64,000 nucleotides of DNA from Candidatus Uhrbacteria bacterium (GCA_003518105.1 DOZH01000005.1:40513-104512), one strand, 5' to 3'. Counted from the first letter of the stretch, positions 3,581-37,758 are shown. The notes: generated by a model from the sequence alone, not told the origin. A program made the numbers and translations.

Positions 3581-4426
3581 ATGAATAATCTCGAAGTCTA
3601 TCGTCATCGTCTCGATTGTGAGTTGCAGCGCGCCAAGGCTCGTTTGGCCGAACTTCCGGTTGGTGAGGCCATCGAGGATTTCGATATCCGGGGTGAACTC
3701 TACGGCCTGGCTTGTGAGATCGCACCCCGTGCTCGTCAGGGTGACTTGCTAGCTATGCGCGAGTGGATGAACATCCGTGGCAACGAACGCATCGTCGACT
3801 TGGCTGCTGGCACCGGCTTCTTTACCAAAGACTTCTTATCACAAACCGCTGGCGAAGTTATCGCCGTTGATCCAAGCCAGATGCAGCTCGGCGTACTCGA
3901 TAAGGTTTGTGCTGGCCGTGCCCGTCTTTTGTTGGGCAGTCCTGACAGTCAGCAGGATATGTCGGTCATATCCGACACCAGTGTGGACGTGGTGTCGAGT
4001 TTCGGCGGGCTTCACCATGTCGCAGATCAACGAACCATGCTCGAGGAAGTTGCCCGTATCCTCAAGCCTGGCGGTCAGTTCACCGCCGCTGACGTCTGCG
4101 CTAACACCGCACTCGCTCGTCACTTTGATGAGTTCGTTGCCGCCAAGTGTCTTACCGGCCACACCGCCCAGTGGTTAGACGAGGCTAAATTGCGTGAGCT
4201 CGCCTCTGGCTTGCCCTTGCAGCTCGAACGAGTTGCCACTGTCCCACTCACCTGGAAGTTCGCCTCGCCCACAGAAATAGCTCTATTCTTCAAAGGCCTG
4301 CACGCCTACGATCTGAGCGAGCAGGAAATTATCGAAGACCTTAAGGCAGCCCTCGGCTTCACCACCGAGAACGGCCTGATCTGCCTCAACTGGCCCATGG
4401 TCTTCTTCCGTTTTGTTCGCATCTAA
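3581..4426 (+). CDS. Class I SAM-dependent methyltransferase (GC-rich cargo 1)
   Basis: Motif I VDLAAGTGFFTKDF and LKPGGQF. The ORF is open from 3482, but the GC shift and GGAG at 3571-3574 favour ATG 3581. Confidence 0.75.
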   Translation: MNNLEVYRHRLDCELQRAKARLAELPVGEAIEDFDIRGELYGLACEIAPRARQGDLLAMREWMNIRGNERIVDLAAGTGFFTKDFLSQTAGEVIAVDPSQMQLGVLDKVCAGRARLLLGSPDSQQDMSVISDTSVDVVSSFGGLHHVADQRTMLEEVARILKPGGQFTAADVCANTALARHFDEFVAAKCLTGHTAQWLDEAKLRELASGLPLQLERVATVPLTWKFASPTEIALFFKGLHAYDLSEQEIIEDLKAALGFTTENGLICLNWPMVFFRFVRI

Positions 4427-5992: not shown

Positions 5993-6493
5993 ATGACACT
6001 CACATCCCATCAGTTCGTCGCCCACGCCCACAATCTCGCTGACCTCGGCATCGAGGCTCTTCACCCCGACGCCACCTCAGCCGTCCTCAAGTTCCTGGCC
6101 ATCCTTGAGAACAGCACCGTTCATATCATCATGGCCGACACCACCCAGCACCGCGCTCTGGCCTTGCTGCACTACTGTTCATATCGCGAGGAGATTCTGC
6201 GCACCTGGTATGCTCGGGCCCTCGCCGACCCCAATCCTCACTACCCACGCGAAATCTTTCGCTACGTTTACGTCGGGGCTGGCTGGATCTCGCCCGGAAT
6301 CAAAAACCTGGTGCATGTCCCAGCCCAGGACGTCATCCAAGGCTGGAAATCTCCCAGTCTGCAGGTCGACACCACGCCCGAGTGGCAGGCCCTGCTCACT
6401 CCTCACCTTTTGGCCAACGTGGCCGCCACCGTCGAGCCTTCCCTCACCCTCTCCCGTGCCCTCCGCGCTGCCCCTCACCCCGATGACTTCTAA
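5993..6493 (+). CDS. Hypothetical protein (GC-rich orphan)
   Basis: ORF open from 5864. GGAGTCCACCATG places the likely start at 5993. No recognisable motif. Other ORFs over this span look like GC-driven artefacts. Confidence 0.5.
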   Translation: MTLTSHQFVAHAHNLADLGIEALHPDATSAVLKFLAILENSTVHIIMADTTQHRALALLHYCSYREEILRTWYARALADPNPHYPREIFRYVYVGAGWISPGIKNLVHVPAQDVIQGWKSPSLQVDTTPEWQALLTPHLLANVAATVEPSLTLSRALRAAPHPDDF

Positions 6494-6548
6494 TCGTTCC
6501 CCTCCCTCACCGGGTGCCGCGTCTTACCGCGACATCCGGTCTTTCTTT

Positions 6549-7319
6549 TTACCTCCCCGCAAACTCCCAAGCCATCGCAAAAATCGACCTCTGCGTTTCG
6601 TACATCGCCCCGTCATGAATCAATATCCCACCATACGGCGACTTGTGGGACATTATTGCCACCTTGCCGTCATAAATTTTAATCTCATTCGGCATCGCAT
6701 AAGTCTTCGGTACCAACCTCACCTCACGCAATTCTTCTCTACTAGCTTCGAAAAACTTTTTGCCTACATTTCCCTCATTTAATATCGCTTGCGTCCTCAC
6801 CCCAGCCGCCGTTCGCCTAGCAATATAATCACTGTAGTATTCCTTTAAGTTAGCCACCACTAAATCCGCATCACCAAAAGTTAAAATAGTTTCCTTAGCC
6901 GTTAGCGTATCCTCGAGCACCGTTTTCACCCCCTCAATTCCCGGGTAATACTGCACTCTTGGCTGCTTGGACGACACCCGTCCGGACAACGCCCGTAAAT
7001 CTGGCAATGTCTTTCGCAGGTCCTCGACACTTCTCTCCGCCTGTTTCAATAACAAGTCCGGCTCTTTAGCATAGAACAACTGCGTGCCATTTGTCTCGGT
7101 GGATCCCACCAACCCCCGCTTTTCCATCGCCTTCAATCCAACGTAAGTAGTGGACCTATTCATGCCCGTCTTCCTAGCAATCACACTGGCCGGCGCCTCC
7201 CCCAAAGCAGTACAGGCCACATATAAATCCGCCTCAGTCTGACTCAGGCCGACATTTTTGAGCGTCTCAGTGTATGCAATAGCCATAGTTGTTATATATA
7301 GTAACAGTATATAACTCAA
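6549..7319 (-). CDS. TrmB-family HTH transcriptional regulator (paralog 2)
   Basis: LKNVGLSQTEADLYVACTALGEAPASVIARKTGMNRSTTYVGLKAMEKRGLV. Probable true start is the ATG at 7286 (MAIAYTE). Confidence 0.75.
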   Translation of the reverse strand: MSYILLLYITTMAIAYTETLKNVGLSQTEADLYVACTALGEAPASVIARKTGMNRSTTYVGLKAMEKRGLVGSTETNGTQLFYAKEPDLLLKQAERSVEDLRKTLPDLRALSGRVSSKQPRVQYYPGIEGVKTVLEDTLTAKETILTFGDADLVVANLKEYYSDYIARRTAAGVRTQAILNEGNVGKKFFEASREELREVRLVPKTYAMPNEIKIYDGKVAIMSHKSPYGGILIHDGAMYETQRSIFAMAWEFAGR

Positions 7320-7369
7320 TAATAAAGCTGTAAATAGGGCTTATACACAGCAACGCACACCACACAGTT

Positions 7370-7398
7370 ATTGAAATTAACACTAAAATATGGTATAG
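7370..7398 (+). promoter_or_regulatory. sigma70-like promoter of cargo operon 2
   Basis: TTGAAA, 17-nt spacer, TATAGT. Confidence 0.45.
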
Positions 7399-7476
7399 TA
7401 CTTTGTCGAGTGAGAGCGCTTCTGCTCACACTCGGCCCCACCACCCATCGCCGACAACCTCGGTACGGAGATTCAC

Positions 7477-7947
7477 ATGGACGCTTCCCTTACTTCCATT
7501 CTCGCCCCCGAAGCCCTCATGATCGACGGTGACGCACCGCCAGTCGAGCCCTACTGGGCACAACTCGGCAAGACAGTGCAAATGCCATGCGGCCAGGTTG
7601 ATCCTGCAACCCTTGTCTTCTTCCAGACAGAGGAGATGAAGAACGGTGATAGCACCCCTGGTCTCGACCTGTCGGACAAGATCCGCCAGGCCAAGCTCAA
7701 GCCTGTCAACGCCAACGTCGCCGTATTCCTTGAGGCCCATCAGGAGTTTCTGGCTAGCGTGCCGAGGGGAATCGATTACCTGGTTTTCACAGAATCGCAA
7801 TTCCTCCGCTGGAACAACCTTCCGTCCTTCCAGTGCTTGCGCCGATGGAAAGACGGGCGATGGTACCCCTTCGACTACATCACCTGGCAAAGATACGGTG
7901 GCGAGGACGCTGCCGTGGCCTTCCGAGTCGACGAACCCACCAAGTAG
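7477..7947 (+). CDS. Hypothetical protein, family A copy 1
   Basis: 156 aa. Paralog of 8616..9062: shared LMIDGDAxPxVEPxWA, PCGQVDP, LFQTEEMK and identical C-terminus VAFRVDEPTK. GGAGATTCACATG ribosome-binding context. Confidence 0.6.
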   Translation: MDASLTSILAPEALMIDGDAPPVEPYWAQLGKTVQMPCGQVDPATLVFFQTEEMKNGDSTPGLDLSDKIRQAKLKPVNANVAVFLEAHQEFLASVPRGIDYLVFTESQFLRWNNLPSFQCLRRWKDGRWYPFDYITWQRYGGEDAAVAFRVDEPTK

Positions 7948-7953
7948 GCCTCT

Positions 7954-8040
7954 GCGTGAGGGTCGAGTAGTGCACTCTACTCCCCTCGCGCCCCCTTCCG
8001 AGGCGTCGAATTATCGACGTTTCAGATCCGGTCAACCACT
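7954..8040 (+). promoter_or_regulatory. Intercistronic double-hairpin element, copy 1
   Basis: GCGTGAGGG-TC-GAGTAG-tgcact-CTACTC-C-CCTCGCGC, then CCCCTTCCGAGG, then CGTCGA-atta-TCGACG, then TTTCAGATCCGGTCAACCAC. Confidence 0.7.
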
Positions 8041-8068
8041 ACGCCGACAACTTCGGCACGGAGACAAC

Positions 8069-8422
8069 ATGTTGTTCGACACCATTACCAGCTTCATCAA
8101 GAATGGCGCTCCTCACCAACTCACTACTGGTGACCATCTCCTGTTCCTCCATCGGGGAAATCCTGGCAATAAGCACTACTCTCTCGAGGTTGTCTTCAGG
8201 ACGGGTGGTTATGGAGCTTCTAGCGGCGACATCTGCGCGGTCCACAATACCTGTGGTTTCGTGCAGAATATCGCGTACTTGCCGATTACCCGTCAGCGTT
8301 GGATCGACGTTCTTGCATCACAAGATCGTCTGGCTGATCGCCTGAACATCGACTTCGTTCTAGGTGAAGTTTCTCCAATGTTCTGCAACAACCTACTTTT
8401 CGACGTGAAGCCGAGGACGTAG
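8069..8422 (+). CDS. Hypothetical protein
   Basis: In-frame ATG preceded by CGGCACGGAGACAAC. 117 aa (MLFDTITSFIKNGAPHQL...). The longer 7646 start runs through the upstream gene and the element. Confidence 0.5.
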   Translation: MLFDTITSFIKNGAPHQLTTGDHLLFLHRGNPGNKHYSLEVVFRTGGYGASSGDICAVHNTCGFVQNIAYLPITRQRWIDVLASQDRLADRLNIDFVLGEVSPMFCNNLLFDVKPRT

Positions 8423-8450
8423 TTTTGGAGAATGCCTTACTAGGCAGTTC

Positions 8451-8490
8451 GCGTGAGGGTCGAGTGGTTTACTCCACTCCCCTCGAACCC
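8451..8490 (+). promoter_or_regulatory. Intercistronic element, degenerate hairpin-1-only copy
   Basis: GCGTGAGGGTC-GAGTGG-tttact-CCACTC-CCCTCGAACC. The lower stem is partly decayed. Confidence 0.5.
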
Positions 8491-8508
8491 ATTAGTGAAC
8501 AAACCCTC

Positions 8509-8600
8509 GCGTGAGGATCAAATGCTGCACCGCATTCTCCTCGCGCCCCCTTCCGAGGCGTCGAATAGTTCGACGTTTCAGATCTGGCCAACCACCCCAC
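8509..8600 (+). promoter_or_regulatory. Intercistronic double-hairpin element, copy 2
   Basis: GCGTGAGGA-TCA-AATGC-tgcacc-GCATT-C-TCCTCGCGC (compensated GAGGA/TCCTC), then CGTCGAA-tag-TTCGACG, then TTTCAGATCTGGCCAACCAC. Confidence 0.7.
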
Positions 8601-8615
8601 ATCCCAGGAGTTTCT

Positions 8616-9062
8616 ATGCTTACCAACCTCATGATCGACGGTGACGCGGCCCCAGAAGTCGAGCCTAACTGGGCTGTGGCTAGCAAGACCGCACACACTC
8701 CTTGCGGTCAGGTAGATCCCACCAAACTCATCTTATTCCAGACGGAAGAGATGAAAAGAGGTGGTCGTTCTGAGGGCACAGTGCTTTCTGACCTGGCTTG
8801 CCAGGCTGGGCTCAACCCCATGAACGCCAATGGGGCCACCTTCCTCAAGAGGCACAAAAAGTTCCTAGCCAAGGTTCCGAAGACGATCAAGTATCTGATT
8901 TTTCCAGAGACGAAATACTTCTGCGGAAATGGATTCTGGTTCTTTCTGTGCCTAGACAGGAGTGCTACCGGGAAGTGGGAATTCAAGCTGAATCGCATCG
9001 TCAACAGCTACTGCGGTCAGTGCGCAATCGTGGCTTTCCGAGTCGACGAACCCACCAAGTAA
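8616..9062 (+). CDS. Hypothetical protein, family A copy 2
   Basis: 148 aa from the ATG after GGAGTTTCT. Paralog of 7477..7947. Confidence 0.6.
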   Translation: MLTNLMIDGDAAPEVEPNWAVASKTAHTPCGQVDPTKLILFQTEEMKRGGRSEGTVLSDLACQAGLNPMNANGATFLKRHKKFLAKVPKTIKYLIFPETKYFCGNGFWFFLCLDRSATGKWEFKLNRIVNSYCGQCAIVAFRVDEPTK

Positions 9063-9068
9063 GCCCCT

Positions 9069-9155
9069 GCGTGAGGGTCGAGTGTTGCACCACACTCCCC
9101 TCGCGCCCCTTTCTGAGACGCCGAATAGTTCGACGTTTCAGATCTGGTCAACCAC
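9069..9155 (+). promoter_or_regulatory. Intercistronic double-hairpin element, copy 3
   Basis: GCGTGAGGGTC-GAGTGT-tgcacc-ACACTC-CCCTCGCGC, then CGCCGAA-tag-TTCGACG, then TTTCAGATCTGGTCAACCAC. Confidence 0.7.
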
Positions 9156-9185
9156 CACGCCGACATGATCGGCACGGAGCACATC

Positions 9186-9494
9186 ATGAAAATTCGTACT
9201 GAAGCTGGTAAGGCCTACAAGTTGGTCGCCGGTGATCGCCTGCGCATCATCGATCGCTCGGATTGCGGCTACGGTTCGTTCAATCTGGAGCTGGAATCGG
9301 CTGTACGCGGCCGTCTTCACTTCATTGAGGATTACGGACCGAACAACTACAGGCGAACCAATGCTCTCTTCTTTTCAGGAGATTGCAGGAACCAGGTTGT
9401 CGACCTCATCTGTTACCTGTCTCACTTGAGCATCGCTCGTCGAGACACCAGCAGTGAGGCGTGCGATTACCTCGAGCTCGCTGCGAGCAAGTGA
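9186..9494 (+). CDS. Hypothetical protein
   Basis: ORF open from 9165. The ATG at 9186 follows CGGCACGGAGCACATC, as in sister genes. 102 aa (MKIRTEAGKAYKLVAGDRLRIID...). Confidence 0.5.
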   Translation: MKIRTEAGKAYKLVAGDRLRIIDRSDCGYGSFNLELESAVRGRLHFIEDYGPNNYRRTNALFFSGDCRNQVVDLICYLSHLSIARRDTSSEACDYLELAASK

Positions 9495-9500
9495 GCCCCT

Positions 9501-9585
9501 GCGTGAGGGTCGAGTGCTGCACCGCACTTCCCTCGCGCCCCTTTCCAAGTCGTGGATTATCGACGCTTTGGATTCGGTCTTCAAC
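9501..9585 (+). promoter_or_regulatory. Intercistronic double-hairpin element, copy 4
   Basis: GCGTGAGGGTC-GAGTGC-tgcacc-GCACTT-CCCTCGCGC. The second hairpin is weakened (GTCG...CGAC). Confidence 0.65.
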
Positions 9586-9598
9586 TAACAAACCAAAT

Positions 9599-10291
9599 AT
9601 GACCACCGTCGCCGCCACAGACCTCAACTACCATCGTTATTCCCTCACCAAATACGATCGCGACATCGTCAACGCTATTCCCTTTCATCGCGAGCTTCAT
9701 GAGCGCCTCGTGTCTATCATCGAAGCTCATTTTGCCGCCACAAAAACCTACAACATCCTGGACCTCGGCGTCGGCACCGGCCTCACGACCAAGCTCATCA
9801 AAGACTATTTACCCCAGTCGCATTTTGACGTCGTCGACTTCTCCGACAACATGTTGCAATGCGCCAAACAACGCCTCGGCCCAGTCAACGTTGATTATTT
9901 CTTAGGTGACTATGCCCTCCTCGACTTCACCAAAAAATACGACCTGATTACTTCCGTCATCGGCTTACATCACCAAGACATGGCTGGCAAGCGCATACTC
10001 TTCGCTAAAATCTATAATCTCCTTGAGCCCGGTGGCCTCTTCATCTTAGGCGACCTCATGACGCACCAAAACCCGCAGCTTAACGCCGTAGCCACAGCTC
10101 GCCACTATCATCACCTAGTCGAGCGCGCCACAGACGAGCAAACTCTCACCGACTGGGCGCACCATCATCTCTATCTCAACCAACTCGACACTCTCGAGGA
10201 TCAAAAGCTGTGGCTCGAATCAGCCGGCCTCAAGGTCGAAGTCGCTTTTCAAGAGTGGCACACGGCATTGCTTGTTTGTCGCAAAACCTAA
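9599..10291 (+). CDS. Class I SAM-dependent methyltransferase (last gene of cargo operon 2)
   Basis: Motif I ILDLGVGTGLTTKLI and LEPGGLFILGDL. ORF open from 9461, but that stretch overlaps the upstream element; the ATG at 9599 is preferred. Confidence 0.75.
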   Translation: MTTVAATDLNYHRYSLTKYDRDIVNAIPFHRELHERLVSIIEAHFAATKTYNILDLGVGTGLTTKLIKDYLPQSHFDVVDFSDNMLQCAKQRLGPVNVDYFLGDYALLDFTKKYDLITSVIGLHHQDMAGKRILFAKIYNLLEPGGLFILGDLMTHQNPQLNAVATARHYHHLVERATDEQTLTDWAHHHLYLNQLDTLEDQKLWLESAGLKVEVAFQEWHTALLVCRKT

Positions 10292-11049
10292 TACCCCGTC
10301 GTCCACACAATCTGCCAAATCATTTTGAGCGTTTTCGCAATCGCCTTACTTTCAAGAGTTAACGCAAACTCTTCATCTTGCGTATAAGAAATAAAACAGA
10401 CCACGTTATCATACAGTAACACCTCGCCCTCAAAGTTGTAGGTCGACGCTGGTACCAGACGCGACTCTCGGTCATGAGTTGCGTCTTTTGCTTTAAAAGC
10501 GTAGCCCTCGGCATTATCCGGAATAATCACGCGACCACTTACGTCATTTTTTTTGCGTTGTACTCGATACTCATTTTCCCAAAACTCATTTAACACTTTA
10601 GATCTCGCTGTTAATCTTTCAACTCCCACAAACGCCGCAATCGCCTTCTCTTTACTCAGCAACGAATCTCGATAAACATTTTTAATCCCTTCAACCCCTT
10701 CCACATACTTAATCTTCGGCTTAAAAACCCCATTCCGGCTAAGCGACAATAACTCCGGCAACAAATCGTCGAGCTTGGCTAATCTATTCTTCAGCAACAA
10801 CGCCAACTTCTCTGGTGGCTCAGCCACATATAACGCCCGCTTCCCCGTCACACTCTTCGTTAATAGTTGTTTCTCCCCCAGTCTCTCCACCACTCCATAA
10901 AGCGTAGTTCTATTGAGTTTGGTCTTCCTCGCCATCTCTAAAACACTGGCCGGTCCCAGCTCCAAACAGGCCGCATAAACCACCGCTTCATCTTCCTCAA
11001 GACCAATATTCTTCAGTTCTTCGTTCAAGTTTAACATATATGTCGGCAA
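10288..11049 (-). CDS. TrmB-family HTH transcriptional regulator (paralog 3)
   Basis: LKNIGLEEDEAVVYAACLELGPASVLEMARKTKLNRTTLYGVVERLGEKQLL. Confidence 0.75.
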   Translation of the reverse strand: MPTYMLNLNEELKNIGLEEDEAVVYAACLELGPASVLEMARKTKLNRTTLYGVVERLGEKQLLTKSVTGKRALYVAEPPEKLALLLKNRLAKLDDLLPELLSLSRNGVFKPKIKYVEGVEGIKNVYRDSLLSKEKAIAAFVGVERLTARSKVLNEFWENEYRVQRKKNDVSGRVIIPDNAEGYAFKAKDATHDRESRLVPASTYNFEGEVLLYDNVVCFISYTQDEEFALTLESKAIAKTLKMIWQIVWTTGY

Positions 11050-11130
11050 TTATGACAACAGAAATATAGCATATAATCCCAAAATTAACAACAAATAGCC
11101 AAAACAGCGAACACCATCACCATAAATCTG

Positions 11131-11159
11131 TCGACAATCACGACAAATTATGCTATATT
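11131..11159 (+). promoter_or_regulatory. sigma70-like promoter of cargo operon 3
   Basis: TCGACA, 17-nt spacer, TATATT. Confidence 0.4.
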
Positions 11160-11218
11160 ACTCAGTTCGAGGTCGCGGCATTCCGCCATAGCTGAGAACA
11201 TCACCACTGGAGTCAATC

Positions 11219-11764
11219 ATGCGCAGTTCTTTCATTCTCAGCAGCGAATCCCGGGGCGTACTCGTGGTTGGTCCGAATACCACCGAACGCTTATCCGGCA
11301 CCTGTTTTCGTGGCGGTCGCCAGGCCGGAGACTTCCTCCACTGGCGTTCCCCCGACGATGTCTTCGCCGACGAATACGTGCGACGCGAATTTCTGGCCGA
11401 CGTTGGTGAAGTGATCGGGCAGCGCGGGCAAGACCGGGCACGGCGCTCGCAAAGCTTGACCATCGTCTGTCCCGGTCAGATCGGTTGGCGCGGCACTCAT
11501 CCGAGTTCACTCTACAGCGCCCAGCAGCTCGAGCAGTTCCAGCCGAATAGGCGGAGCACGGCCTGGCGAATCAAGCCGGGCGTGGCTCTAGCACCGCTGA
11601 CTCACGATCTCACCATCATCTACGACCTGTTGTGGAATGACGACGATGAGTGGGCGGTGATTGTGGGCTCGATGTACCCCGGTCCCGACATCGGTGTCCT
11701 GCGCGGTAACATCACCGAGAACGAAGGCATTGTGTTCTTTGCTTGGGACAACCCCGGCGAGTAA
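11219..11764 (+). CDS. Hypothetical protein (GC-rich cargo 3)
   Basis: 181-aa ORF after GGAGTCAATC. No recognisable motif. Three overlapping minus-strand ORFs look like GC artefacts. Confidence 0.5.
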   Translation: MRSSFILSSESRGVLVVGPNTTERLSGTCFRGGRQAGDFLHWRSPDDVFADEYVRREFLADVGEVIGQRGQDRARRSQSLTIVCPGQIGWRGTHPSSLYSAQQLEQFQPNRRSTAWRIKPGVALAPLTHDLTIIYDLLWNDDDEWAVIVGSMYPGPDIGVLRGNITENEGIVFFAWDNPGE

Positions 11765-11779
11765 GTCGAATGAGTTCGT

Positions 11780-11870
11780 GGCGTGAGCGTTAAGAAGATT
11801 CCCGTAGACTTCTCAGCTCTCGCGCCCCCTTCCGAGCTGGCGAATAATCGTCATCTCGGAATCGCAACAT
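11780..11870 (+). promoter_or_regulatory. Intercistronic double-hairpin element, copy 5 (divergent)
   Basis: GGCGTGAG...AGAAG-attcccgtaga-CTTCT...CTCGCGCC, then CCCTTCCGAG...CTCGGAA. Same lower stem and CCCTTCCGAG box, different upper stem. Confidence 0.6.
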
Positions 11871-11889
11871 CACATCATCGAGGTTCACC

Positions 11890-12360
11890 GTGAAAATTCT
11901 CATCATCGAAGATGACCCCAAGCACTTCGCCGACGCCAACGCTTTCTTCTTTGGTCGCGAAGGCATCACCGAACTGGTCGTAGTCAAGACTTTTGACGAC
12001 GCACGCCCACACCTCTTCGACAGCGAGTATTTGAAAAGGAAAGCAGCTGACGGAGTGATTTCTGACGTCACCTTCCCGCGCTGGTACCTTTCAAAAAAGC
12101 CGTTGCAGATCGGCGTCGCCATCATGTCGCTTTGTCAAAAGCGTGGCATCCCCTGCGTGCTCAACACCGACGGCTACCATCACAACGACGAACTCGATTG
12201 GATCTGTACGTTGGGGCGTGAACTCGATTGGCCTGAAATAGTCGATTGTGGCAATCATCCGGATCAGCGAATTGAGACCAAGGACTGGGATTTGGCTTGG
12301 TCGACGCTACAAGAGTTGATGGCCGCAAAAGCCGTTACTACAGCGGTCGGTGCCCCTTAA
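11890..12360 (+). CDS. Receiver (CheY-like) domain-like protein, stand-alone
   Basis: GTG start. MKILIIEDDP...GVISDVTFP resembles a REC-domain N-terminus and phospho-acceptor region. The assignment is tentative. Confidence 0.4.
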   Translation: MKILIIEDDPKHFADANAFFFGREGITELVVVKTFDDARPHLFDSEYLKRKAADGVISDVTFPRWYLSKKPLQIGVAIMSLCQKRGIPCVLNTDGYHHNDELDWICTLGRELDWPEIVDCGNHPDQRIETKDWDLAWSTLQELMAAKAVTTAVGAP

Positions 12361-12421
12361 GCACATCGTAAAAAGCCGGACTCAGGGATGCACTCCCCGA
12401 GCCCGGCTCTTCTTGTTCATA

Positions 12422-12610
12422 TTATTTTCTACCCGATTTTTTTTCTACTTCTCCCTCAACTAATTCTCTACCAGACCACCTACCAATGCGTGCGCCACAA
12501 TCTTGGCAGTCAATTTCGCTCACACCATCATAATATTCTGGACTTAGTCTATCATATTCCACCATCATAAGATTATTACCACCGCACTTTTTACAGCTGG
12601 CTGTATCCAT
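12422..12610 (-). CDS. Small zinc-ribbon protein
   Basis: 62 aa with CKKCGG...CQDCGA (two CxxC pairs). Sits 11 nt downstream of the Fic gene on the same strand. Confidence 0.5.
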   Translation of the reverse strand: MDTASCKKCGGNNLMMVEYDRLSPEYYDGVSEIDCQDCGARIGRWSGRELVEGEVEKKSGRK

Positions 12611-12621
12611 AAATCAGCAGA

Positions 12622-13794
12622 TTAATTTCTATTAAGTGATGGCGGTACAAATCCATTTTGTTCTAGAACGTAGAATATACCCCTTAGTAAATAACTATTA
12701 ATAAAACCAATTGTGTAGACTCTGCTTTTACCCGGCACTGCTATTAGCATTTTCTTATCTTTTAAGCGCTTGAGAATGCGTGACCGTTGGACGGCTGACT
12801 CCTCGCCAATTATTACGTCTAAATCAGCCGACTTAAGTAGCATTTGCTCATGTCTAACTAGAGCACTAAGAATATCAAATTCTCTCTTTGTGATCAACTG
12901 TCGCTCGGCCGAATATTTGAGTGCAGGCAATAGAATAATTTCTGTCATGTACTTCAGGTCTAACAAACGATCAATTTTCTCAATCTCATTCTTTAGACCT
13001 CCTAATACATATAAACACCAAGCCAATACCTTGTCTTTTTCGCCAGTATCAGCTAGTGCCAAATTCTTATAGTATTCATTTCTATCCATGCAGAAAATTG
13101 CGGTTGGATTCAATATTCGTCCGTTGTGAACCTTGAATCCTTGCTTGATCAACATGGCATAAGTAAACATTCTAATCAATCGTCCGTTACCATTATCAAA
13201 AGGATGGATCCAGGCCATGCGGTGGTGTGACAAGGCCGTGACCAATAAATCATTTTGTAGGCTGGTAGGAGTATTGACGAACTTGAGAAGTTCAGTGAAA
13301 TATTCAGGTACCTTAAGTTTGTCTGTTGGTTTATGTAATGATCCTTGGATACTGATATTGATTGGCCGTAATTCTCCGGGGAATCTCGACCCCTCACCTT
13401 TAGGGGGCGGAGTAAGACCTTTTACAATTATTTTGTGAATTTCAGAGACTAAAGCTCGAGTAATATCACCACCCTCAGTCACGTTATCCTCAATGAACTT
13501 AATAGCTCGTTCAATATTGAAAATCTCACGAATACCCTCTTCCTTTGTGTCTCTTGGGACTTGTTCAATAATCCTCTCAACAAATTCAGCTAGTGTAGTA
13601 TGGTTACCCTCTATTCGCGCCGATCCCAGGCTTTCCATCATCTGAAATATCCCTTTTAACTGAAAGAAGATATAGGCTGGGACTGGCCCACCTAACTTTT
13701 TAACTCGCAGTTTCTCTAGTTCAACTATCGTGCTGGCAAGTTCCGAAGCCCAGGCTGGTTCAAATATTTTTAGAGGAATCTCATTGAGAACCAT
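12622..13794 (-). CDS. Fic family protein (adenylyltransferase-type fold)
   Basis: Canonical Fic motif HPFDNGNGRLIR, in an AT-rich segment. Confidence 0.85.
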   Translation of the reverse strand: MVLNEIPLKIFEPAWASELASTIVELEKLRVKKLGGPVPAYIFFQLKGIFQMMESLGSARIEGNHTTLAEFVERIIEQVPRDTKEEGIREIFNIERAIKFIEDNVTEGGDITRALVSEIHKIIVKGLTPPPKGEGSRFPGELRPINISIQGSLHKPTDKLKVPEYFTELLKFVNTPTSLQNDLLVTALSHHRMAWIHPFDNGNGRLIRMFTYAMLIKQGFKVHNGRILNPTAIFCMDRNEYYKNLALADTGEKDKVLAWCLYVLGGLKNEIEKIDRLLDLKYMTEIILLPALKYSAERQLITKREFDILSALVRHEQMLLKSADLDVIIGEESAVQRSRILKRLKDKKMLIAVPGKSRVYTIGFINSYLLRGIFYVLEQNGFVPPSLNRN

Positions 13795-13931
13795 ATTATT
13801 TACATATTAAGATTAAATTAATTAACATTATATACATATTACCCCTATAAAACAAGGCGAAACACAATAATTAAAATAACCTGATTTAACACTGGTAAAT
13901 CAGGTTATTTATCATTTATCCACAGTCGCAC

Positions 13932-15221
13932 TTACTTCACCATCTTCTCTTTCAAAAGGTCGATGGTCTTCCGGTTCACCATCTGGCGTTCGATGTAATC
14001 CCGATACTGTGGCTCGTAAATCTGCTTAGCAGCCTCGGCATCATCCTTATACTGCTCCGCAATCTTGTCGAGCTCAGCGTCGACCACGGCGGCGTCGACC
14101 ATCACCTTATCGTCAGCGGAAATCTTCTTCAAAATAATTCCCACCTTGATCCGTTGCAGCGCGGCTGGTGTGAAATCAATTTTGAGGTCGGTCAATGACT
14201 TATTGATGGAGGCCAAGTACTGTGTGAAGTCCATGCCCTGGCTCGTCACCTGGTGTTCCAACTCATGCGTCATCTTTTCAATCTCTTGGTTGACGAGCAA
14301 ATCTGGAATAATATCGAACGTCGACTTGTCGGCCACGAGGTCGAGCACCGCCTTGTCCAAGCGACGAGCTTCTTCAATCACATTCTCGGCACGCAAGTTT
14401 TCCATGAGCTTCTCTTCCATCTCACTCGCACTCGTCAAGCCAACGGTCACAGCAAAAGCGTCGTCGAACATTGGTGGCTGCAACAAGAAAATTTCATTCA
14501 ACTTGATGGTGAAATCGACTGGCTGACCAGCCAAGTGCTTCTGGTAGTGCTCCTCTGGGAAGTTCAAGGTGAAAGTTTTCTCGTCGCCTTCCTTCAAACC
14601 CAAAATCTCATCCACAAAACCTGGCACATAGTAACTCTCGTTCGTAAACACGCCGTGGTTCTTGCTCTCGCCGCCTTCCAGTACCACGCCATCTTTCTTC
14701 ATGGTCAAGTTTACAATCGCCTTATCACCCATGGTCAAAGCGCGACCAGCCTCTGCCTTCACCTCTTTGGTCTGCATCCGCACAATGTCGGCCTTGGCTT
14801 GTTCGAGTAACTCTTTTGTTGGCTCCGTGTCCTTCTTCTCGACGGACAACTTAGTCCAATCCGCCAACTTGGTGATCTGTGGCATCAAAGCAATTTCGGC
14901 TGTGTAAATAAATTCATTATCTGGGGCTAGCTTCTCCATGGCAAAAAATGGCTGACCAACCACGTCCAAGTCCGCTTCCACCATCGCTGCCACAAAGGTC
15001 TGACGCACCAAATCTTCTGTGGCATGCTCCAAAATAGCCATCTCACCAATTTTTTGCTTAATGGCTTCGTAAGGTGCCTTGCCCGGACGATAACCAGGAA
15101 TGGTGACGTCCTCGGCCATATGTTCGGCCGCTACGTGACAGGCCTCGGTTACTTCTTCTGCTGGGATAGTCACGGTGATCTTAGCCTTGTTCTCGGGGAG
15201 CTGTTCAACAACGTATGACAT
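13932..15221 (-). CDS. tig: Trigger factor
   Basis: MSYVVEQLPENKAKITVTIPAEEV and the central FKBP-like region, with typical length. ORF open to 15272, but the ATG at 15221 fits the family N-terminus. Confidence 0.85.
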   Translation of the reverse strand: MSYVVEQLPENKAKITVTIPAEEVTEACHVAAEHMAEDVTIPGYRPGKAPYEAIKQKIGEMAILEHATEDLVRQTFVAAMVEADLDVVGQPFFAMEKLAPDNEFIYTAEIALMPQITKLADWTKLSVEKKDTEPTKELLEQAKADIVRMQTKEVKAEAGRALTMGDKAIVNLTMKKDGVVLEGGESKNHGVFTNESYYVPGFVDEILGLKEGDEKTFTLNFPEEHYQKHLAGQPVDFTIKLNEIFLLQPPMFDDAFAVTVGLTSASEMEEKLMENLRAENVIEEARRLDKAVLDLVADKSTFDIIPDLLVNQEIEKMTHELEHQVTSQGMDFTQYLASINKSLTDLKIDFTPAALQRIKVGIILKKISADDKVMVDAAVVDAELDKIAEQYKDDAEAAKQIYEPQYRDYIERQMVNRKTIDLLKEKMVK

Positions 15222-19008: not shown

Positions 19009-19025
19009 ACCGTGTCTAAACTATC

Positions 19026-19100
19026 AGGACGACGTCGAACATCGTCCTTATCAATGTTTGCAGGCCTAGGACGACTCCCGATGTCGTCCTTTGCACTTTT
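19026..19100. repeat. Double-hairpin REP-like element (AGGACGAC...GTCGTCCT family), copy 1
   Basis: AGGACGACgtcgaacaTCGTCCT + TATCAATGTTTGCAGGCCT + AGGACGACtcccgatGTCGTCCT + TTGCACTTTT. Abuts the stop codon of the HD gene. Confidence 0.7.
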
Positions 19101-27174: not shown

Positions 27175-28095
27175 ATGGCCAAACTCATCGACAAATATCT
27201 CCAACAATTTTTAGAATACTTAGAAATCGAACGTGGCCGCTCTTTGCTCACGGTTAAGAATTATTGTTTTTATTTACGCCGTTTTCTCGACTGGTCGGCC
27301 ATCAGCGAGCCGAGCGACATCACGCAGGAAGTCGTCCGCAAGTTTCGCCTCTTCCTCAACCGCGACTTAGCTGGCCGTGAAGAAGCCAACCTCCAAAAAA
27401 CCACACAAAATTACCACCTCATCGCCCTGCGCTCATTCTTGAAGTTCCTCGCCAAGCGCGACATCGCTTCCCTCTCGCCCGAAAAAATCGAACTGGCCAA
27501 ACAAGAAGGCCGCCACGTCAGCTTCCTCGAAGCGGAAGAGCTCAAGCGCATGTTACTCCTCGCCGCCCGTGACACTTCACTCGTCGGTCTCCGCGATCGG
27601 GCCATTCTCGAGCTTCTCTTCTCCTCTGGCCTCCGCGTCTCCGAACTTTCCAACCTCCTCATCGAACAGGTCAACCTCAAGCTCGACGAATTCACCATCA
27701 AAGGCAAAGGCAGCAAACACCGCGTGGTCTTCCTCTCACCTGCCGCCAAACAATGTCTCAAAATGTACTTGGACGTCCGTCAAGACGTCGCTCCCTTCAT
27801 GTTTGTGCGCCACGACCGCGCTAAAAAAGGTGGTGTCGCTGCCCTCACCCCCCGTTCCGTGCAGCGCGTAATTGACGGCTTTGCCCGCAACGCCGGCATC
27901 ACCAAACGTGTCACCCCCCACACCCTGCGCCACACCTTCGCCACGGATCTCCTCCGTAACGGTGCCGATATCCGCTCCGTTCAATCCCTCCTCGGTCACT
28001 CTTCTATCGTCACCACCCAGGTCTACACCCACATTACAGACAAGGAACTCAAACGCGTTTACACCAAATTTCATGATAAACCCGAGGTCAGTTGA
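27175..28095 (+). CDS. Tyrosine recombinase XerC/XerD family
   Basis: C-terminal catalytic region HTLRHTFATDLLRNGADIRSVQSLLGHSSIVTTQVYTH. N-terminal SAM-like core-binding domain. Confidence 0.85.
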   Translation: MAKLIDKYLQQFLEYLEIERGRSLLTVKNYCFYLRRFLDWSAISEPSDITQEVVRKFRLFLNRDLAGREEANLQKTTQNYHLIALRSFLKFLAKRDIASLSPEKIELAKQEGRHVSFLEAEELKRMLLLAARDTSLVGLRDRAILELLFSSGLRVSELSNLLIEQVNLKLDEFTIKGKGSKHRVVFLSPAAKQCLKMYLDVRQDVAPFMFVRHDRAKKGGVAALTPRSVQRVIDGFARNAGITKRVTPHTLRHTFATDLLRNGADIRSVQSLLGHSSIVTTQVYTHITDKELKRVYTKFHDKPEVS

Positions 28096-28115
28096 TAATC
28101 TGTGGACAAACACCC

Positions 28116-28150
28116 AGGACGACGCGAGACGTCGTCCTTTGCATTTCCAT
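28116..28150. repeat. AGGACGAC...GTCGTCCT hairpin element, single-hairpin copy
   Basis: AGGACGACgcgagaCGTCGTCCT + TTGCATTTCC, directly after the recombinase gene. Confidence 0.6.
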
Positions 28151-28168
28151 AGTGTATAATCCCGCCAC

Positions 28169-29389
28169 ATGAAAAAACCTCACATTGTAATTGTCGGCGG
28201 CGGGTTCGGCGGGCTAGAGGTCGCCTGGGGCCTGCGTGGCCAAGTCAAACAAGGAAAAATCGCCGTCACGCTCATCAACATCACCAACTATTTTCTCTTT
28301 ACTCCCCTCTTGCACGAAGTCGCAACTGGCGGTCTCAGTGCCGCTAGCGTTGCCGAGCCTCTCCGTGAAGTCTTCGCCCACACCGGCCTCAATATAATCC
28401 AAGGCGAGGTCACCAAGGTCGACGCCGACAAGAAGGCCGTCTTCCTCGGCCATCACACCATTCCCTACGACGTCCTGGTTCTCTCAACTGGTGCCACCAC
28501 CAACTACTTCAATACTCCAGGCGCCGCGGAGTTTGCCCTCCCCCTCAAAACTCTCGCCGACGCCACTGCCATCCGCGCTCGCATCATCGACGCCTTCGAA
28601 ACCGCCTCACTCGTCACTACCGCTGCCGAACGCAAGGAACTCCTCTCCTTCGTCGTGGTCGGTGCTGGTGCCACCGGTGTCGAGCTCGCCGCCGAACTCG
28701 CCGAATTTGCTTTTCACATTGCCCGCCGCTATTTTTGCCAAAAAAATAGCTGTATTCTGCATAACGAAGTTTCTGTCACGCTCGTTAGTGCTGGTCCCGA
28801 ACTCCTCGCCCAGTTCTCCCCGCCAACTCGTAAGGCGGCTGAAGCTCGTTTAAAAAAGCTCGGCGTCAAACTCCGCTTGGGCGTGCAAGTCGGCGAGGTC
28901 GACGCAACTGGCGTCAACATGAACGACGGTTGGCGCATCCCCTCTGGCCTCACTATCTGGACCGCTGGCGTTAAAGCAGTCCTTCCATTGATTGTTGATA
29001 GCTCTGGCACCAAGGTAGCCAAAGCTCAGCTTTGGTCGCAAGCAAAAAAGCCAGCTGAGCTGGTCATCCTCGGCGACGCCGCTGCTGGCCTCCCCATGCT
29101 GGCCCAAGTCGCTGTTGCTCAAGGCCGTTCCGTGGCCAATAATATTGTTCTCCTCCTGGCTAGCCGTCCTCTCCTCCCATTTGTCTATCACTCCCGCGGC
29201 TCCTTCGTCTCCCTCGGTCAATGGTTCGCCGCTGGCACCATCGGTCGTATAAATTTGAGCGGTCGCCTCACCTGGTGGCTTTGGCGCACCGTCTATCTCT
29301 TCAAATTTGCCAGCCACAAAAAGCGCCTCCGCATTGTCTTCGAGTGGACGCTGAACCTCTTCTATCCCCGTGACATCACGCGCCTCTAA
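28169..29389 (+). CDS. Type II NADH dehydrogenase-like FAD-dependent oxidoreductase
   Basis: N-terminal dinucleotide fold IVIVGGGFGGLEVA and a second fold VVVGAGATGVELAAELA. Confidence 0.8.
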   Translation: MKKPHIVIVGGGFGGLEVAWGLRGQVKQGKIAVTLINITNYFLFTPLLHEVATGGLSAASVAEPLREVFAHTGLNIIQGEVTKVDADKKAVFLGHHTIPYDVLVLSTGATTNYFNTPGAAEFALPLKTLADATAIRARIIDAFETASLVTTAAERKELLSFVVVGAGATGVELAAELAEFAFHIARRYFCQKNSCILHNEVSVTLVSAGPELLAQFSPPTRKAAEARLKKLGVKLRLGVQVGEVDATGVNMNDGWRIPSGLTIWTAGVKAVLPLIVDSSGTKVAKAQLWSQAKKPAELVILGDAAAGLPMLAQVAVAQGRSVANNIVLLLASRPLLPFVYHSRGSFVSLGQWFAAGTIGRINLSGRLTWWLWRTVYLFKFASHKKRLRIVFEWTLNLFYPRDITRL

Positions 29390-29509
29390 AACAAAAACTT
29401 CCGGATCAGCCGGGAGTTTTTAGTTCTTGTTTTATCCTTGCAGATGCGTCGACCTAATCAACGACTCTGGGAGGGCGACGATCCGAGGGGTACTCGGATC
29501 GCCAGGCGT

Positions 29510-30043
29510 TCAGGTGAGCTTGAGGAACTTGGGAGCCTCATTCATCACCCGACCACGGATCACGATGTGCGGCGGTTCGTTCTCGGCCGGCAGCAGGTGT
29601 GCCTGCCAGTACAGCCGGTCGAAGTCATCGTGGTCCGGAGAGCGGCCTTCACCGTCGCGGACGACGACCTTCATGTCGAGCTGGAACTCGTTGAAGTCGT
29701 GCGGGTTGGCTTCGACCCTGCCCGCCTTGTCCAGGTTCCAGAAGGCCGCACCCTCGGCCTGGTCGAGACCCAGGAACCAGGACGCATCGCTCTGGCTGTT
29801 CTCCGAGGTGTGGATGCTGTCGCACAACTTGTCGAGGAAGTCCTCTCCAAGCTTCGCCACCTCCTCGGCCGTCGGCTGCCAGTCGATCTCCCCATCCGGC
29901 TTCGCGATGAAGAACGACCGCAGGCGCGGATTCGTCTCGAGCCCTTCCAGGGCGTCGCGCGCCGTTTCCGGCAAGCGCTCGGGGAAGAAGATGATGGCGA
30001 CAGTGACGACACTGACCTTGGAGGGATATTCGTTGCTTTCCAT
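29510..30043 (-). CDS. Hypothetical protein (GC-rich orphan)
   Basis: The only one of five overlapping ORFs with balanced composition. GGAGTATTGAATG start context. Upstream TTGACA, 17-nt spacer, CATTAT. Confidence 0.5.
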   Translation of the reverse strand: MESNEYPSKVSVVTVAIIFFPERLPETARDALEGLETNPRLRSFFIAKPDGEIDWQPTAEEVAKLGEDFLDKLCDSIHTSENSQSDASWFLGLDQAEGAAFWNLDKAGRVEANPHDFNEFQLDMKVVVRDGEGRSPDHDDFDRLYWQAHLLPAENEPPHIVIRGRVMNEAPKFLKLT

Positions 30044-30620
30044 TCAATACTCCATGTTGTTTCGAGTCCACTGAGCAGGATGATTCCCGCTCAACAGACC
30101 CAAAATAATGCCATGAACAGTGGGAATTGTCAATCTCGTTATATTACCTTATCGGTCACTATCATTCCCCCCCCCTGCATTACCTGCTTCCCAATCACAC
30201 CCATAATCGTATCGACGATAGTACTCGGGTGCTTAGCCATTTTCTGCAGCTGCGGTCCAACTTTCTTAATGTAAGCATCACCCAGGGTCGACGGTGAGAT
30301 AACGGTAAACGGCAGATAGAACGCTTCGACCACATCGTGGTAGTGCCGATTAAGTTCGTTTACAAACGAACCGAGACCAGAATTCACCAAACCATACAGA
30401 ATCAAATCCTTCGGTTTATTGTTTGGTGAACCAGCACCCCAAATCATCTGAATCGGTGTGGTGCGGTTCGTGTATTTCTGCACTATTGCCTTGGTTAAGA
30501 GCACACTACCCACCAGCTTCGCGCCAAAGCAGCTCTTAATGCCATCTTGGTCGAGCTCCTCCTGGCAGGTACCCCGCAAACTAGACACATTGTCTCGTTT
30601 CAAGGCATATTCAATGCCAT

Positions 30621-30878
30621 ATGCCTCGCCATACAGATCAGAGCACTAAGAACGAGATATTGTCAGCTATTAAAGACGGCCTAAGTGTGGCCGACGCTGC
30701 CATTAAATATACTAAACCTACTCAAACCATTTATGCTTGGCTACGAGGCCAAGTAGATAATATTGGCACCAGTGCTCTTGAAGTCGCTAAGTTACGGCGA
30801 GAAAACACTGAACTTAAAGAAATAATCGGCTGGCTGACGTTAGAAAAACGTCGCGGGGAAAAAAATCACAGAGGCTAG
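30621..30878 (+). CDS. IS3-family transposase OrfA (HTH)
   Basis: 85 aa with an HTH region and leucine-zipper-like tail (LEVAKLRRENTELKEIIGWLTLEK). Ends just after an A7 run (30859-30865). Confidence 0.8.
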   Translation: MPRHTDQSTKNEILSAIKDGLSVADAAIKYTKPTQTIYAWLRGQVDNIGTSALEVAKLRRENTELKEIIGWLTLEKRRGEKNHRG

Positions 30879-30885
30879 GCGTCGT

Positions 30886-34338: not shown

Positions 34339-34502
34339 AGCAAATTCTTCTCATTATTAGCCGCAAACATGTCAGATCAAAAAACGTCACTGACCAAGTA
34401 GAATATCATAATTATACGTAAAAGTCAATGTAATTGCACTATAATTTGGCCTGATGTATAATAAAAATATACGCTAGTTACACAAATAAGCGCAAAATCC
34501 CT

Positions 34503-35279: not shown

Positions 35280-35285
35280 ACTCTC

Positions 35286-35360: not shown

Positions 35361-35378
35361 ACTATCTCTGGTTCACGA

Positions 35379-37679: not shown

Positions 37680-37758
37680 GTTTCAGTGTCGATCCGCCGA
37701 ACCGTTCGGCGTCTCGATGCTGGGCGCGAGAAGAGACGAGTGCTGTCTCGACTCACGC
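37680..37758 (-). promoter_or_regulatory. Intercistronic double-hairpin element, copy 6 (minus strand)
   Basis: Minus-strand reading: GCGTGAG-TC-GAGAC-agcact-GTCTC-T-TCTCGCGC, then CGCCGAA-cgg-TTCGGCG (compensated relative to CGTCGAA/TTCGACG), then ...ACGGAGTTCACAATG. Confidence 0.65.

Follow-up and report, generated by a model that had tools for sequence, protein, structure and literature searches.

A structured two-hairpin RNA element behind stop codons of TrmB-linked accessory operons in Candidatus Uhrbacteria

Operons and copies of the element in the window

The DNA considered here is a stretch of 64,000 nucleotides from Candidatus Uhrbacteria bacterium (GCA_003518105.1 DOZH01000005.1:40513-104512), called the window in the following, in which positions are counted from the first letter. 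Behind the stop codons of several of its genes lies a structured element of about 85 bases that consists of two hairpins, and seven full copies and one half copy of it are present in the 64 kb. It is limited to accessory operons, the majority of them transcribed divergently from a gene for a TrmB-like regulator, and it represents a new RNA family of narrow taxonomic range and of a familiar kind.

The proteins encoded here carry the annotation Candidatus Uhrbacteria in a TPA metagenome-assembled genome. Operon 2 is located a few kb from rnpA, dnaA, and dnaN, and its extended -10 promoter (TTGAAA-17-TATAGT at 7371-7399, found in a promoter scan) is divergent from a TrmB-like gene. The cargo consists of four small proteins, g1-g4, and a class I methyltransferase (MT). 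The genes g1 (7477-7947) and g3 (8616-9062) are paralogs with 53% amino acid (aa) identity, g2 and g4 are at most remote relatives, and none of the four proteins has a match in Pfam, NCBIfam, or PADLOC. In operons 3 and 5, too, transcription diverges from TrmB-like genes. Most copies of the element are followed by the next gene of the operon within ~110 nt and without an intervening promoter; as canonical terminators, i.e., a hairpin plus a U-tract, stand at the operon ends, these internal copies are expected to be read through.

Hairpins 1 and 2 of the element are termed H1 and H2, and H3 is an optional small hairpin next to the Shine-Dalgarno (SD) sequence. The copies were scored with two covariance models (CMs; R1 and R2), and L-numbers denote related loci or contigs. 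The features of the window are as follows:

7405..7436, plus strand: 5'-terminal hairpin of operon 2, GUCGAGUG...CACUCGGC, ~6 nt past the extended -10 TGGTATAGT, at about +1 of the transcript
7954..8031, plus strand: copy A, type I; H1 7954-7991, H2 with closing CC/GG 7992-8031; 103.2 bits with CM R1
8032..8068, plus strand: tail and translation-initiation region of copy A; CA-rich UCAACCACUAC, H3 8043-8057, SD ACGGAG 8058-8063, then the g2 start at 8069
8451..8488, plus strand: copy P, H1 only; 28 nt past the g2 stop codon, copy B directly next; CM 29-31 bits
8509..8587, plus strand: copy B, type I; H1 8509-8546, H2 8547-8587; ahead of g3 (start 8616); CM 91.7 bits
9069..9147, plus strand: copy C, type I; H1 9069-9106, H2 9107-9147; 6 nt past the g3 stop codon; CM 100.8 bits, fold z = -4.5
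9501..9577, plus strand: copy D, type II; H1 9501-9538, H2 9539-9577; 6 nt past the g4 stop codon; CM 93.5 bits
11781..11865, plus strand: copy E, operon 3; H1 11781-11825, H2 11826-11865 (UUCCGAG...CUCGGAA); CM 63.1 bits
29435..29504 (CM site 29424-29510), minus strand: copy G, type IV (GGCGAUC... lower stem); H1 ~29503-29477, H2 29475-29435; 47.4 bits with CM R2, E 7e-10, filters off
37683..37758, minus strand: copy F, operon 5, type III; H1 37758-37724, H2 37723-37683; CM 58.5 and 67.2 bits, fold z = -4.1

An initial annotation of the window had proposed seven copies, and on reading the sequence the element is found at each of these sites, i.e., 7954, 8451 (H1 only), 8509, 9069, 9501, and 11781 on the plus strand and 37758-37680 on the minus strand. 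The count has to be raised, as an eighth site, copy G on the minus strand, had been overlooked; beyond copy G a CM search with filters off gave no more copies in the window. The pattern GCGTGAG-N14-40-CTCGCGCCC has 6 matches against 0.00 expected from shuffles, the CCTCGCGCCCCYTTCYRAG box has 5 matches against 0.22 expected, and a repeat finder placed the operon-2 copies in families of 96 and 48 nt.

Copy A begins 6 nt beyond the g1 stop codon TAG (7945-7947), and its minimum free energy (MFE) fold contains both hairpins (z = -4.8). Its tail is homologous to the 3' half of the primary 5' untranslated region (UTR) of operon 2 (7437-7476), as judged from sequence reading and an alignment of the UTR with the tail. 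As described before, three GCCGA-N5-TCGGY hairpins abut ACGGAG (7450-7470, 8043-8063, and 9159-9179), and the last of these, the H3 and SD of copy C, precedes the g4 start at 9186. The 5'-terminal hairpin of operon 2 is itself followed by a CCACC/GCCGA-N5-UCGG/ACGGAG tail homologous to that behind H2, it is kept in L028, L036, and L040, and in function it would correspond, for the first cistron, to H2. In g1 (7920-7944) and g3 (9035-9059) the final 25 nt, CTTCCGAGTCGACGAACCCACCAAG, encode ..FRVDEPTK* and are similar to parts of the element, i.e., to its linker, to its CA-rich tail, and to H2 in the 5' half. As distant homologs stop earlier (..VAFGE*), it is conceivable that this C-terminal extension is a captured fragment of the element.

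The lower stem of copy B is compensated (GAGGA/UCCUC), in agreement with the initial reading, and the tandem of copy P with a full element is kept in L036 (ortholog at 3648-3704). Copy D, of which L028_2, L040_1, and L036_2 are orthologs, lies ahead of the methyltransferase gene (start 9599) without an SD and without H3. In copy E the upper stem of H1 is longer and of different sequence; this copy follows the stop codon of a 181-aa gene by 16 nt, and a GTG start at 11890 comes next. Copy F lies 11 nt past a stop codon at 37772-37770 and is followed by a gene for a B12-binding radical S-adenosylmethionine (SAM) protein (start 37646). The gene before copy F (37770-38263, minus strand) is split over two frames, with a 133-aa open reading frame (ORF) that stops at 37862 and a second frame that is open to the TAA at 37770; this frameshift may mark a pseudogene, or it may stem from recoding or from an error of the assembly close to a T7 run.

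Copy G is found 5-6 nt past the stop codon of an orphan 177-aa gene (29510-30043) with no gene downstream, and an intrinsic terminator (~29420-29390) comes after it. The orphan gene has its own promoter and a terminator behind it, an ortholog search with the 177-aa protein returned no homolog but itself, and the gene is located downstream of a TrmB-divergent operon that carries an IS3-family insertion. This insertion (30620-31704, plus strand), with a helix-turn-helix orfA followed by an rve integrase-core orfB, lies inside the apparent TrmB-divergent operon (34338 down to 29510) and lies between the genes for a dehydrogenase and a methyltransferase on one side and, on the other, two small genes with copy G at their end.

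Structure and covariation

H1 is GC-rich with 12-16 bp in 29-45 nt (median dG -22 kcal/mol) and usually has a 2-nt 5' bulge, U(C/U). A C-rich linker of 5-9 nt separates it from H2, which has ~13 bp in 39-43 nt (median dG -17.7 kcal/mol) and the inner stem CGNCGAA/UUCGNCG. Ahead of most small downstream genes H2 is followed by a CA-rich tail, optionally by a small hairpin, and then by the SD. The H1 lower stem GCGUGAGGG/CCCUCGCGC with its U.G pair and the upper stems that vary while staying paired (such as GAGTAG/CTACTC or AGAAG/CTTCT) had been recognized correctly in the initial annotation, and so had the change in the second hairpin from CGTCGAA/TTCGACG to CGCCGAA/TTCGGCG in the minus-strand copy. 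The extent of H2 had been underestimated: the CCGAG of a presumed box and the TTTCAG of a presumed tail are no separate parts and together form the outer stem of H2.

The structure was assessed on an alignment of 24 distinct copies (A6), with 500 column shuffles and with 3' partners slid by 1-3 columns as controls. Standard pairs fill 91.8% of the pair cells compared to 72.7% in the column shuffles, and changes on both sides occur at 28 of the 30 pairs (111 cells compared to 28.5 in shuffles). The covariation score is 0.484 compared to 0.167 for shuffles (0/500 reach 0.484) and at most 0.096 for slid partners, and the same structural support was obtained on a set of 21 copies. Covariation, the absence of which would by the initial annotation have refuted the proposal, is found in structure-agnostic as well as CM-fitted alignments: an alignment of the first 11 copies made with MAFFT only (A2) has 13 pairs with double changes and a score of 0.245 compared to 0.143, and de novo application of RNAalifold to a MAFFT alignment of 18 copies (A5) gave both hairpins with 22 pairs, 17 of them with double changes. 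The MFE structure is H1 plus H2 in every copy.

Examples of compensated changes come from both hairpins. For the outer stem of H2, type I has CUGAG/UUCAG and type II has CCAAG/UUUGG; for its inner stem, copies of the window have GGCGUCGA/UCGACGUU, compared to GGUAUCGA/UCGAUGCU in L036. The lower stem of H1 has the form given above in some of the copies and reads GGCGAUCUGA/UCAGAUCGCC in others. The conserved U.G pair of the lower stem is changed to C-G in five copies and never to the A.C type. Both hairpins are strongly supported, and their folding has clearly been conserved in evolution.

The copies split into several diverged subfamilies. It is conceivable that the two hairpins together form the RNA operator of a trans-acting protein, which would define a post-transcriptional regulon parallel to the TrmB-like regulators and would fit the limitation of the element to one operon class. 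In favour of an operator, some parts are conserved in sequence and not in structure alone: U(C/U)GAG is kept where the bulge meets the start of the upper stem, the inner stem of H2 keeps its sequence form in all subfamilies, and YCAC(U/C) is frequent in H1 loops, whereas the loops themselves (GUAA, AAAA, UACCC) and the lower stems (GGCGAUC as compared to GCGUGAGG) differ completely between subfamilies. No candidate RNA-binding protein was found either, the small operon proteins being without database matches, and an operator function appears quite unlikely. A ligand-binding leader, as suggested in the initial annotation, is unlikely because the loops vary, the downstream genes are unrelated, and copy G and L036_2 have no gene downstream. 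The features of a riboswitch are accordingly missing: loops and linker vary by subfamily, and the genes that follow are small orphans or encode a methyltransferase, a radical SAM protein, or a phosphoenolpyruvate-utilising enzyme.

Distribution among related genomes

CM searches identified at least 17 more copies in eight related Candidatus Uhrbacteria genomes. A pattern scan of the GTDB species representatives gave 26 loci, three of which are real, two labelled Uhrbacteria and one labelled Gammaproteobacteria but syntenic. These three, L028, L036, and L040, are orthologous to the operon-2 locus of the window and differ from it in cargo. L036 (CAYHFQ010000001.1) is titled 'uncultured Gammaproteobacteria', yet the locus is syntenic and its TrmB is ~86% identical to those of the Uhrbacteria loci, and this metagenome-assembled genome is probably misbinned or mislabelled. 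On contigs with TrmB orthologs two covariance models revealed more diverged copies in L065, L066, L069, L071, and L077. No copies were found by CM search in L075 and L076, where the TrmB orthologs are 56-64% identical, or at distant monocistronic g1 homologs (L004-L007). A scan of viral contigs gave 11 matches, all chance GC-rich ones, a scan of metagenome contigs gave 17, all of them chance, and BLAST searches against phage and plasmid sequences gave no match. Because copies occur only at Uhrbacteria-type loci and none turned up in the viral, metagenome, phage, and plasmid searches, the family, although real, is limited to a narrow group of Candidatus Uhrbacteria, ultra-small bacteria within the candidate phyla radiation (CPR). 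The existence of homologs in related genomes does not bear out a single very recent duplication, which had been named as the alternative when the element was first noted.

The gene content between TrmB and the trigger factor gene (tig) varies in four close relatives, and the units that differ are bounded by the element, i.e., g1-g2-g3-g4-MT, g1-g4-MT, g1-g2, and g4-aminotransferase-MT (compared over 7287-10291 of the window, 4766-6700 of L028, 3500-4760 of L036, and 3190-5820 of L040). The order is TrmB-g1'-element-g4'-element-MT-terminator in L028, TrmB-g4'-element-aminotransferase-MT in L040, and TrmB-g1'-element-g2'-P+element-terminator in L036. The interval between the highly conserved TrmB gene and tig is thus a hotspot of cassette-like turnover.

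Selection and the folding strand

Selection was examined by comparing the window with L028, L036, or L040. The TrmB gene is 86% identical at the nucleotide level and 0.62-0.65 at third codon positions, and the corresponding values for the cargo genes are 60-76% and 0.53-0.63. Orthologous elements are 82-89% identical; the paralogous copies A and C are 85% identical, and the genes that flank them, g1 and g3, have a third-position identity of 0.53. By this comparison the element is under purifying selection and changes far more slowly than near-neutral sites, and recent duplication as the cause of its similarity is therefore ruled out, as the identity of the element across genomes is far above the third-codon-position identity of its neighbours.

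Among paired positions there are 51 G.U/U.G and 17 A.C/C.A combinations. Every copy found, in the window and in relatives, lies in the sense direction past a stop codon and in the same direction as the flanking genes. Orientation tracks transcription and not replication, because copies F and G are gene-oriented on the minus strand in a window with a GC skew of constant sign. Together with this orientation, the surplus of G.U pairs relative to A.C favours sense-strand RNA, rather than single-stranded DNA, as the probable folding molecule.

The variable gene content raises the question of whether the hairpins act as folded single-stranded or palindromic DNA for a recombinase or transposase that drives gain and loss of cassettes, in the manner of an integron attC site or a REP element and with any effect on RNA being secondary. 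Such a role would account for the element-bounded differences between the conserved TrmB and tig in the four relatives and for tandem and half copies; an Xer-type tyrosine recombinase is encoded 1.3 kb from copy G and another near L069_2, and the GC content of the cargo is above that of the surroundings. Homologous recombination between 85-nt direct repeats is, however, sufficient to explain cassette turnover, and both the orientation with transcription on the two strands of one replichore and the G.U excess over A.C suit an RNA. On reading of the sequence, attC core sites (RYYYAAC/GTTRRRY) were absent from the ends of the element, and neither target-site duplications nor terminal inverted repeats were seen; searches of phage, plasmid, or viral collections gave no copies, and the recombinase scores 132 bits against the integron-integrase cut-off of 265 bits and is XerC/D-like. 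A role at the DNA level is for these reasons regarded as highly improbable. Most improbable of the readings considered is a more specific form of it, in which the element would be the recombination site of a CPR-specific, integron-like cassette platform that shares no parts with integrons and perhaps works via the nearby Xer-type recombinase. If this were true, the TrmB-linked operons would be expression platforms for shuffled promoterless cargo genes, and this would account for the cassette-wise differences, for sites that are halved or in tandem, and for a cargo of foreign GC content.

Two other identities at the DNA level were considered and rejected. The element is not a TrmB DNA operator, as the palindrome TGTTATATATAGTAACA in the divergent promoter is unrelated to it and its stems covary without fixed half-sites. 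It is also not a miniature inverted-repeat transposable element, as reading of the flanks gave no terminal inverted repeats or target-site duplications.

Position relative to stop codons, start codons, and terminators

The term intercistronic, used in the initial annotation, is too narrow because the constant feature of the element is its position after a stop codon. The gap between stop codon and H1 has a minimum of 5-6 nt, which recurs in six diverged copies (A, C, D, G, L028_2, and L071_2) and, as read from coordinates, in a seventh, L077; the maximum is 44 nt. The gaps originally given, 6 nt at 7954, 9069, and 9501 and 28, 16, and 11 nt at 8451, 11781, and 37758, are correct. The next start codon lies 107-117 nt from H1 in copies of type I and in E and F, a range that widens to 87-125 nt when relatives are included, and the genes behind type II copies have neither an SD nor a tail.

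The module is not always complete or single. H1 occurs alone in copy P, in L065_2, and in L071_3, where a separate terminator follows, and in L065_2 it is followed by UCUUUUGUUUUU, the U-tract of which makes H1 a bona fide terminator that ends the operon. Copy G and L036_2 are full units that have a stop codon on one side and a terminator on the other, and no gene comes after them. Tandems are formed by P and B in the window, by P and a type II copy in L036, and by two full units in L077. In the latter case (9184-9351, minus strand) two complete elements of different subfamilies stand back to back between genes of 148 and 198 aa, from which it follows that the module can duplicate or insert independently of genes.

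The features of an intrinsic terminator are present in part, i.e., the hairpin is GC-rich, while a U-tract is missing except in L065_2 and most copies are not at the end of a transcription unit. It is still imaginable that H1 makes the polymerase pause or ends some of the transcripts, thereby grading expression along the operon. The stability of H1 (-22 kcal/mol) is like that of the terminators at the operon ends (-21 to -25 kcal/mol), and the case of L065_2 illustrates how H1 with a U-tract ends an operon. Behind H1 there is, on the other hand, CCCCC or CCAG and not U, a scan for hairpins with U-tracts reports none at the elements, and G and L036_2 still need a separate canonical terminator. 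As the conserved, covarying H2 is also left unexplained, a leaky terminator or pause site is considered very unlikely. The initial judgment that the element is neither a gene fragment nor a classical terminator is thus upheld, given the missing U-tract, the covarying stems, and the operons' own terminators.

The narrow spacing could also indicate that the structure acts on ribosomes and not on RNA decay. Two versions of such a translational device can be envisaged. First, H1 might be set against the terminating ribosome and modulate termination or stall it; Liang, Rudd and Deutscher reportedly found in 2015 that E. coli repetitive extragenic palindromic (REP) hairpins within ~15 nt of a stop codon modulate termination or stall ribosomes. 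The recurrence of the minimal 5-6 nt gap in diverged copies is in line with this, but gaps reach 44 nt. Second, H1 and H2 might insulate the downstream initiation region and maintain a CA-rich single-stranded standby site that is accessible to the 30S subunit. Before small genes, H2 is indeed followed by a conserved CA-rich tail with H3 and the SD, the first cistron uses the same tail, and the constrained distance from H1 to the start codon would fit as well; type II copies, however, stand ahead of genes without SD or tail, and some copies have no downstream gene. A translational function therefore seems unlikely.

Translational coupling had been suggested in the initial annotation, and a version of it in which the pyrimidine-rich spacer after the stop codon sequesters the SD was tried, as the MFE folds of copies A, C, and F hinted at pairing of CUCU/CCCU with GGAG. 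It was rejected on the basis of partition-function folds of 11 full intercistronic regions, in which the SD partner varies by copy; masking the spacer covered by the ribosome had no effect, and the freed spacer leaves the SD closed. Folding in silico thus gives no support for this form of coupling.

Comparison with known families and systems

With Rfam 15 the window contains only 4 tRNAs at gathering score, and at E<=10 three weak matches over 7300-12000 lie outside the elements or are unrelated to them, so that no family accounts for the element. With strong covariation, no Rfam match, and conservation across genomes, the description of the element as an undescribed cis-acting structured RNA holds.

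In its presumed working the element is closest to intercistronic stabiliser or processing hairpins such as those of the puf operon, malEF REP, and the RNase III sites of phage T7. The hairpins of the Rhodobacter puf operon, the E. coli malE-malF REP, and the pap operon are cases of intercistronic mRNA stabilisation or processing (for background see PMC7509114). Common to these and the present element are stable, sense-strand intercistronic hairpins without a U-tract, which are thought to block exonucleases and to give a cistron a stability of its own. The present element differs in being a fixed H1-linker-H2 module that follows nearly every gene of an operon and that forms a family across genomes with compensatory changes. 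The RNase III signals of phage T7 are irregular hairpins with bulges or internal loops between cistrons, and after cutting the hairpin stays as a 3' stabiliser of the upstream RNA. Irregular, bulged hairpins between cistrons of a polycistronic RNA are shared with T7, whereas the stem of H1, with 15-16 bp, is shorter than in typical RNase III substrates and the cut proposed below would be in the single-stranded linker. In chloroplasts a single intercistronic footprint of a pentatricopeptide repeat (PPR) protein stops exonucleases that arrive from either side and thereby sets two RNA termini, the 3' terminus upstream and the 5' terminus downstream; the logic is alike, except that the barrier there is a bound protein and here would be two RNA hairpins.

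REP sequences and bacterial interspersed mosaic elements (BIME; REPIN) as well as the pneumococcal BOX are short, structured extragenic repeats that are often found past stop codons, are co-transcribed and modular, form tandems in some cases, and can influence the stability or the translation of an mRNA, all of which they have in common with, or could share with, the present element. In contrast to REP/BIME all significant copies here are sense and there are no inverted pairs, reverse-strand CM matches being a palindromic echo of at most 22 bits. The copies are also low in number (8 in 64 kb) and are found in one class of accessory operons, and no GTAG-type flanking tetranucleotide is present at the element. 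A Pfam scan that covered part of the ORFs of the window gave no RAYT (Y1 transposase).

The likeness to integron attC sites is a resemblance only. It consists in a structured repeat after each promoterless gene of an array with one upstream promoter, in structure being kept over sequence, and in a cassette content that is variable among close relatives (L028, L036, and L040). The two ends of H1 are GCGYGAG/CUCGCGC (or GGCGAUC/GAUCGCC), and GTTRRRY is seen at neither of them. In the place of intI a TrmB-like gene lies divergent from the array, and the strand asymmetry fits a sense RNA. The sole tyrosine recombinase of the window (27175-28095) reaches 132 bits compared to the 265-bit cut-off of TIGR02249, and its best matches are XerC, XerD, and XerA.

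A possible cistron-boundary module

The preferred interpretation, with a rough probability of 0.4, is that the element serves as a processing and stability module at the boundaries between cistrons of a polycistronic mRNA. RNA polymerase would read through the element because it has no U-tract, and the polycistronic RNA would then either be cleaved within the single-stranded linker, a speculative part of this scheme, or be shortened up to the hairpins. H1 would shield the upstream cistron at its 3' end from 3'-to-5' exonucleases and would be set as near to the stop codon as the terminating ribosome permits. With the stop codon in the A site and a 6 nt spacer, the base of the stem would be at about +13, just outside the mRNA entry channel, a placement that leans on established ribosome-footprint and helicase data. 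H2 would in turn cap the 5' end of the downstream cistron, as the 5'-terminal hairpin of the primary transcript would do for the first cistron. Each cistron would in this way be bracketed by 5' and 3' hairpins and have an identical initiation region, which would uncouple its stability and translation from those of its neighbours.

The element has the features of intercistronic processing and stability hairpins, as it is sense-strand, co-transcribed, stable, at a cistron boundary, and without terminator function. In general, as reviewed in PMC7509114, exonucleases are blocked by 3' hairpins, mRNAs are stabilised by 5' stem-loops, and polycistronic RNAs are cut to segments that differ in stability. 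The ability of H1 to stand at the 3' end of an RNA is seen in L065_2, with its U-tract, and in L071_3, with the terminator next to it.

Three observations weigh against a cistron-boundary module. First, the linker is C-rich and not AU-rich as RNase E or RNase Y usually prefers. Second, G and L036_2 sit before a terminator without a downstream gene, so that H2 has nothing to protect and H1 duplicates the role of the terminator hairpin. This may mean that the unit serves the upstream gene only; alternatively, both may be remnants, as the H1 arm of L036_2 is degenerate and G lies near the IS3 insertion. Third, the tandems (P+B, P+type II in L036, and L077 9184-9351) are not required by a model with a single cut.

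Other features of the window

The GC content is 0.53-0.58 in element-bearing stretches (6001-10000, 28001-30000, and 36001-38000) and 0.60 at 42001-44000, compared to 0.42-0.45 in neighbouring stretches such as 12001-14000, 48001-52000, and 34001-36000, which suggests that the cargo is of different origin or under different constraints.

Two further repeat families were observed. A 44-nt palindromic repeat, CCCTCCCCCAGCYATGGGGGAGTWGGNGGGGGC, is found at 44229-44272, 46725-46768, and 60181-60224, in frame within coding sequence, where it encodes ..SPPPAMGELEGA.. in DNA polymerase I, ..NSPPAMGELVGA.. in a holA-like gene, and the C-terminal NPPPAMGE* of a 1042-aa ORF; in this it resembles the gene-inserting Rickettsia palindromic elements. 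In the second family (19019-19091, 28113-28146, 35279-35351, and 45982-46054) hairpins of the form AGGACGAC-N6-GTCGTCCT are paired around ATCAATGTTTGCAGGCC, and TTTGCA comes next. These pairs, which have no relation to the two-hairpin element, probably represent terminators that work in both directions or a repeat element of another kind.

Implications

Almost nothing is known of post-transcriptional gene organisation in the CPR (Patescibacteria), which cannot be cultured on their own, and no description of such a structured RNA family in these bacteria was found. The impact of the present family is for now limited by its narrow distribution and by a function that is as yet putative. It marks, however, TrmB-linked cargo operons with a fast turnover, and its covariance model provides a handle with which metagenomes can be searched. 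The element amounts to a modular 'gene boundary', backed by covariation, that equips all cistrons of an accessory operon alike, with one set of 5' and 3' hairpins and one type of initiation region. Should RNA ends indeed be defined by it, the element would show how reduced genomes obtain gene-by-gene control off one promoter, and it would be a natural counterpart of the insulators used in synthetic biology.

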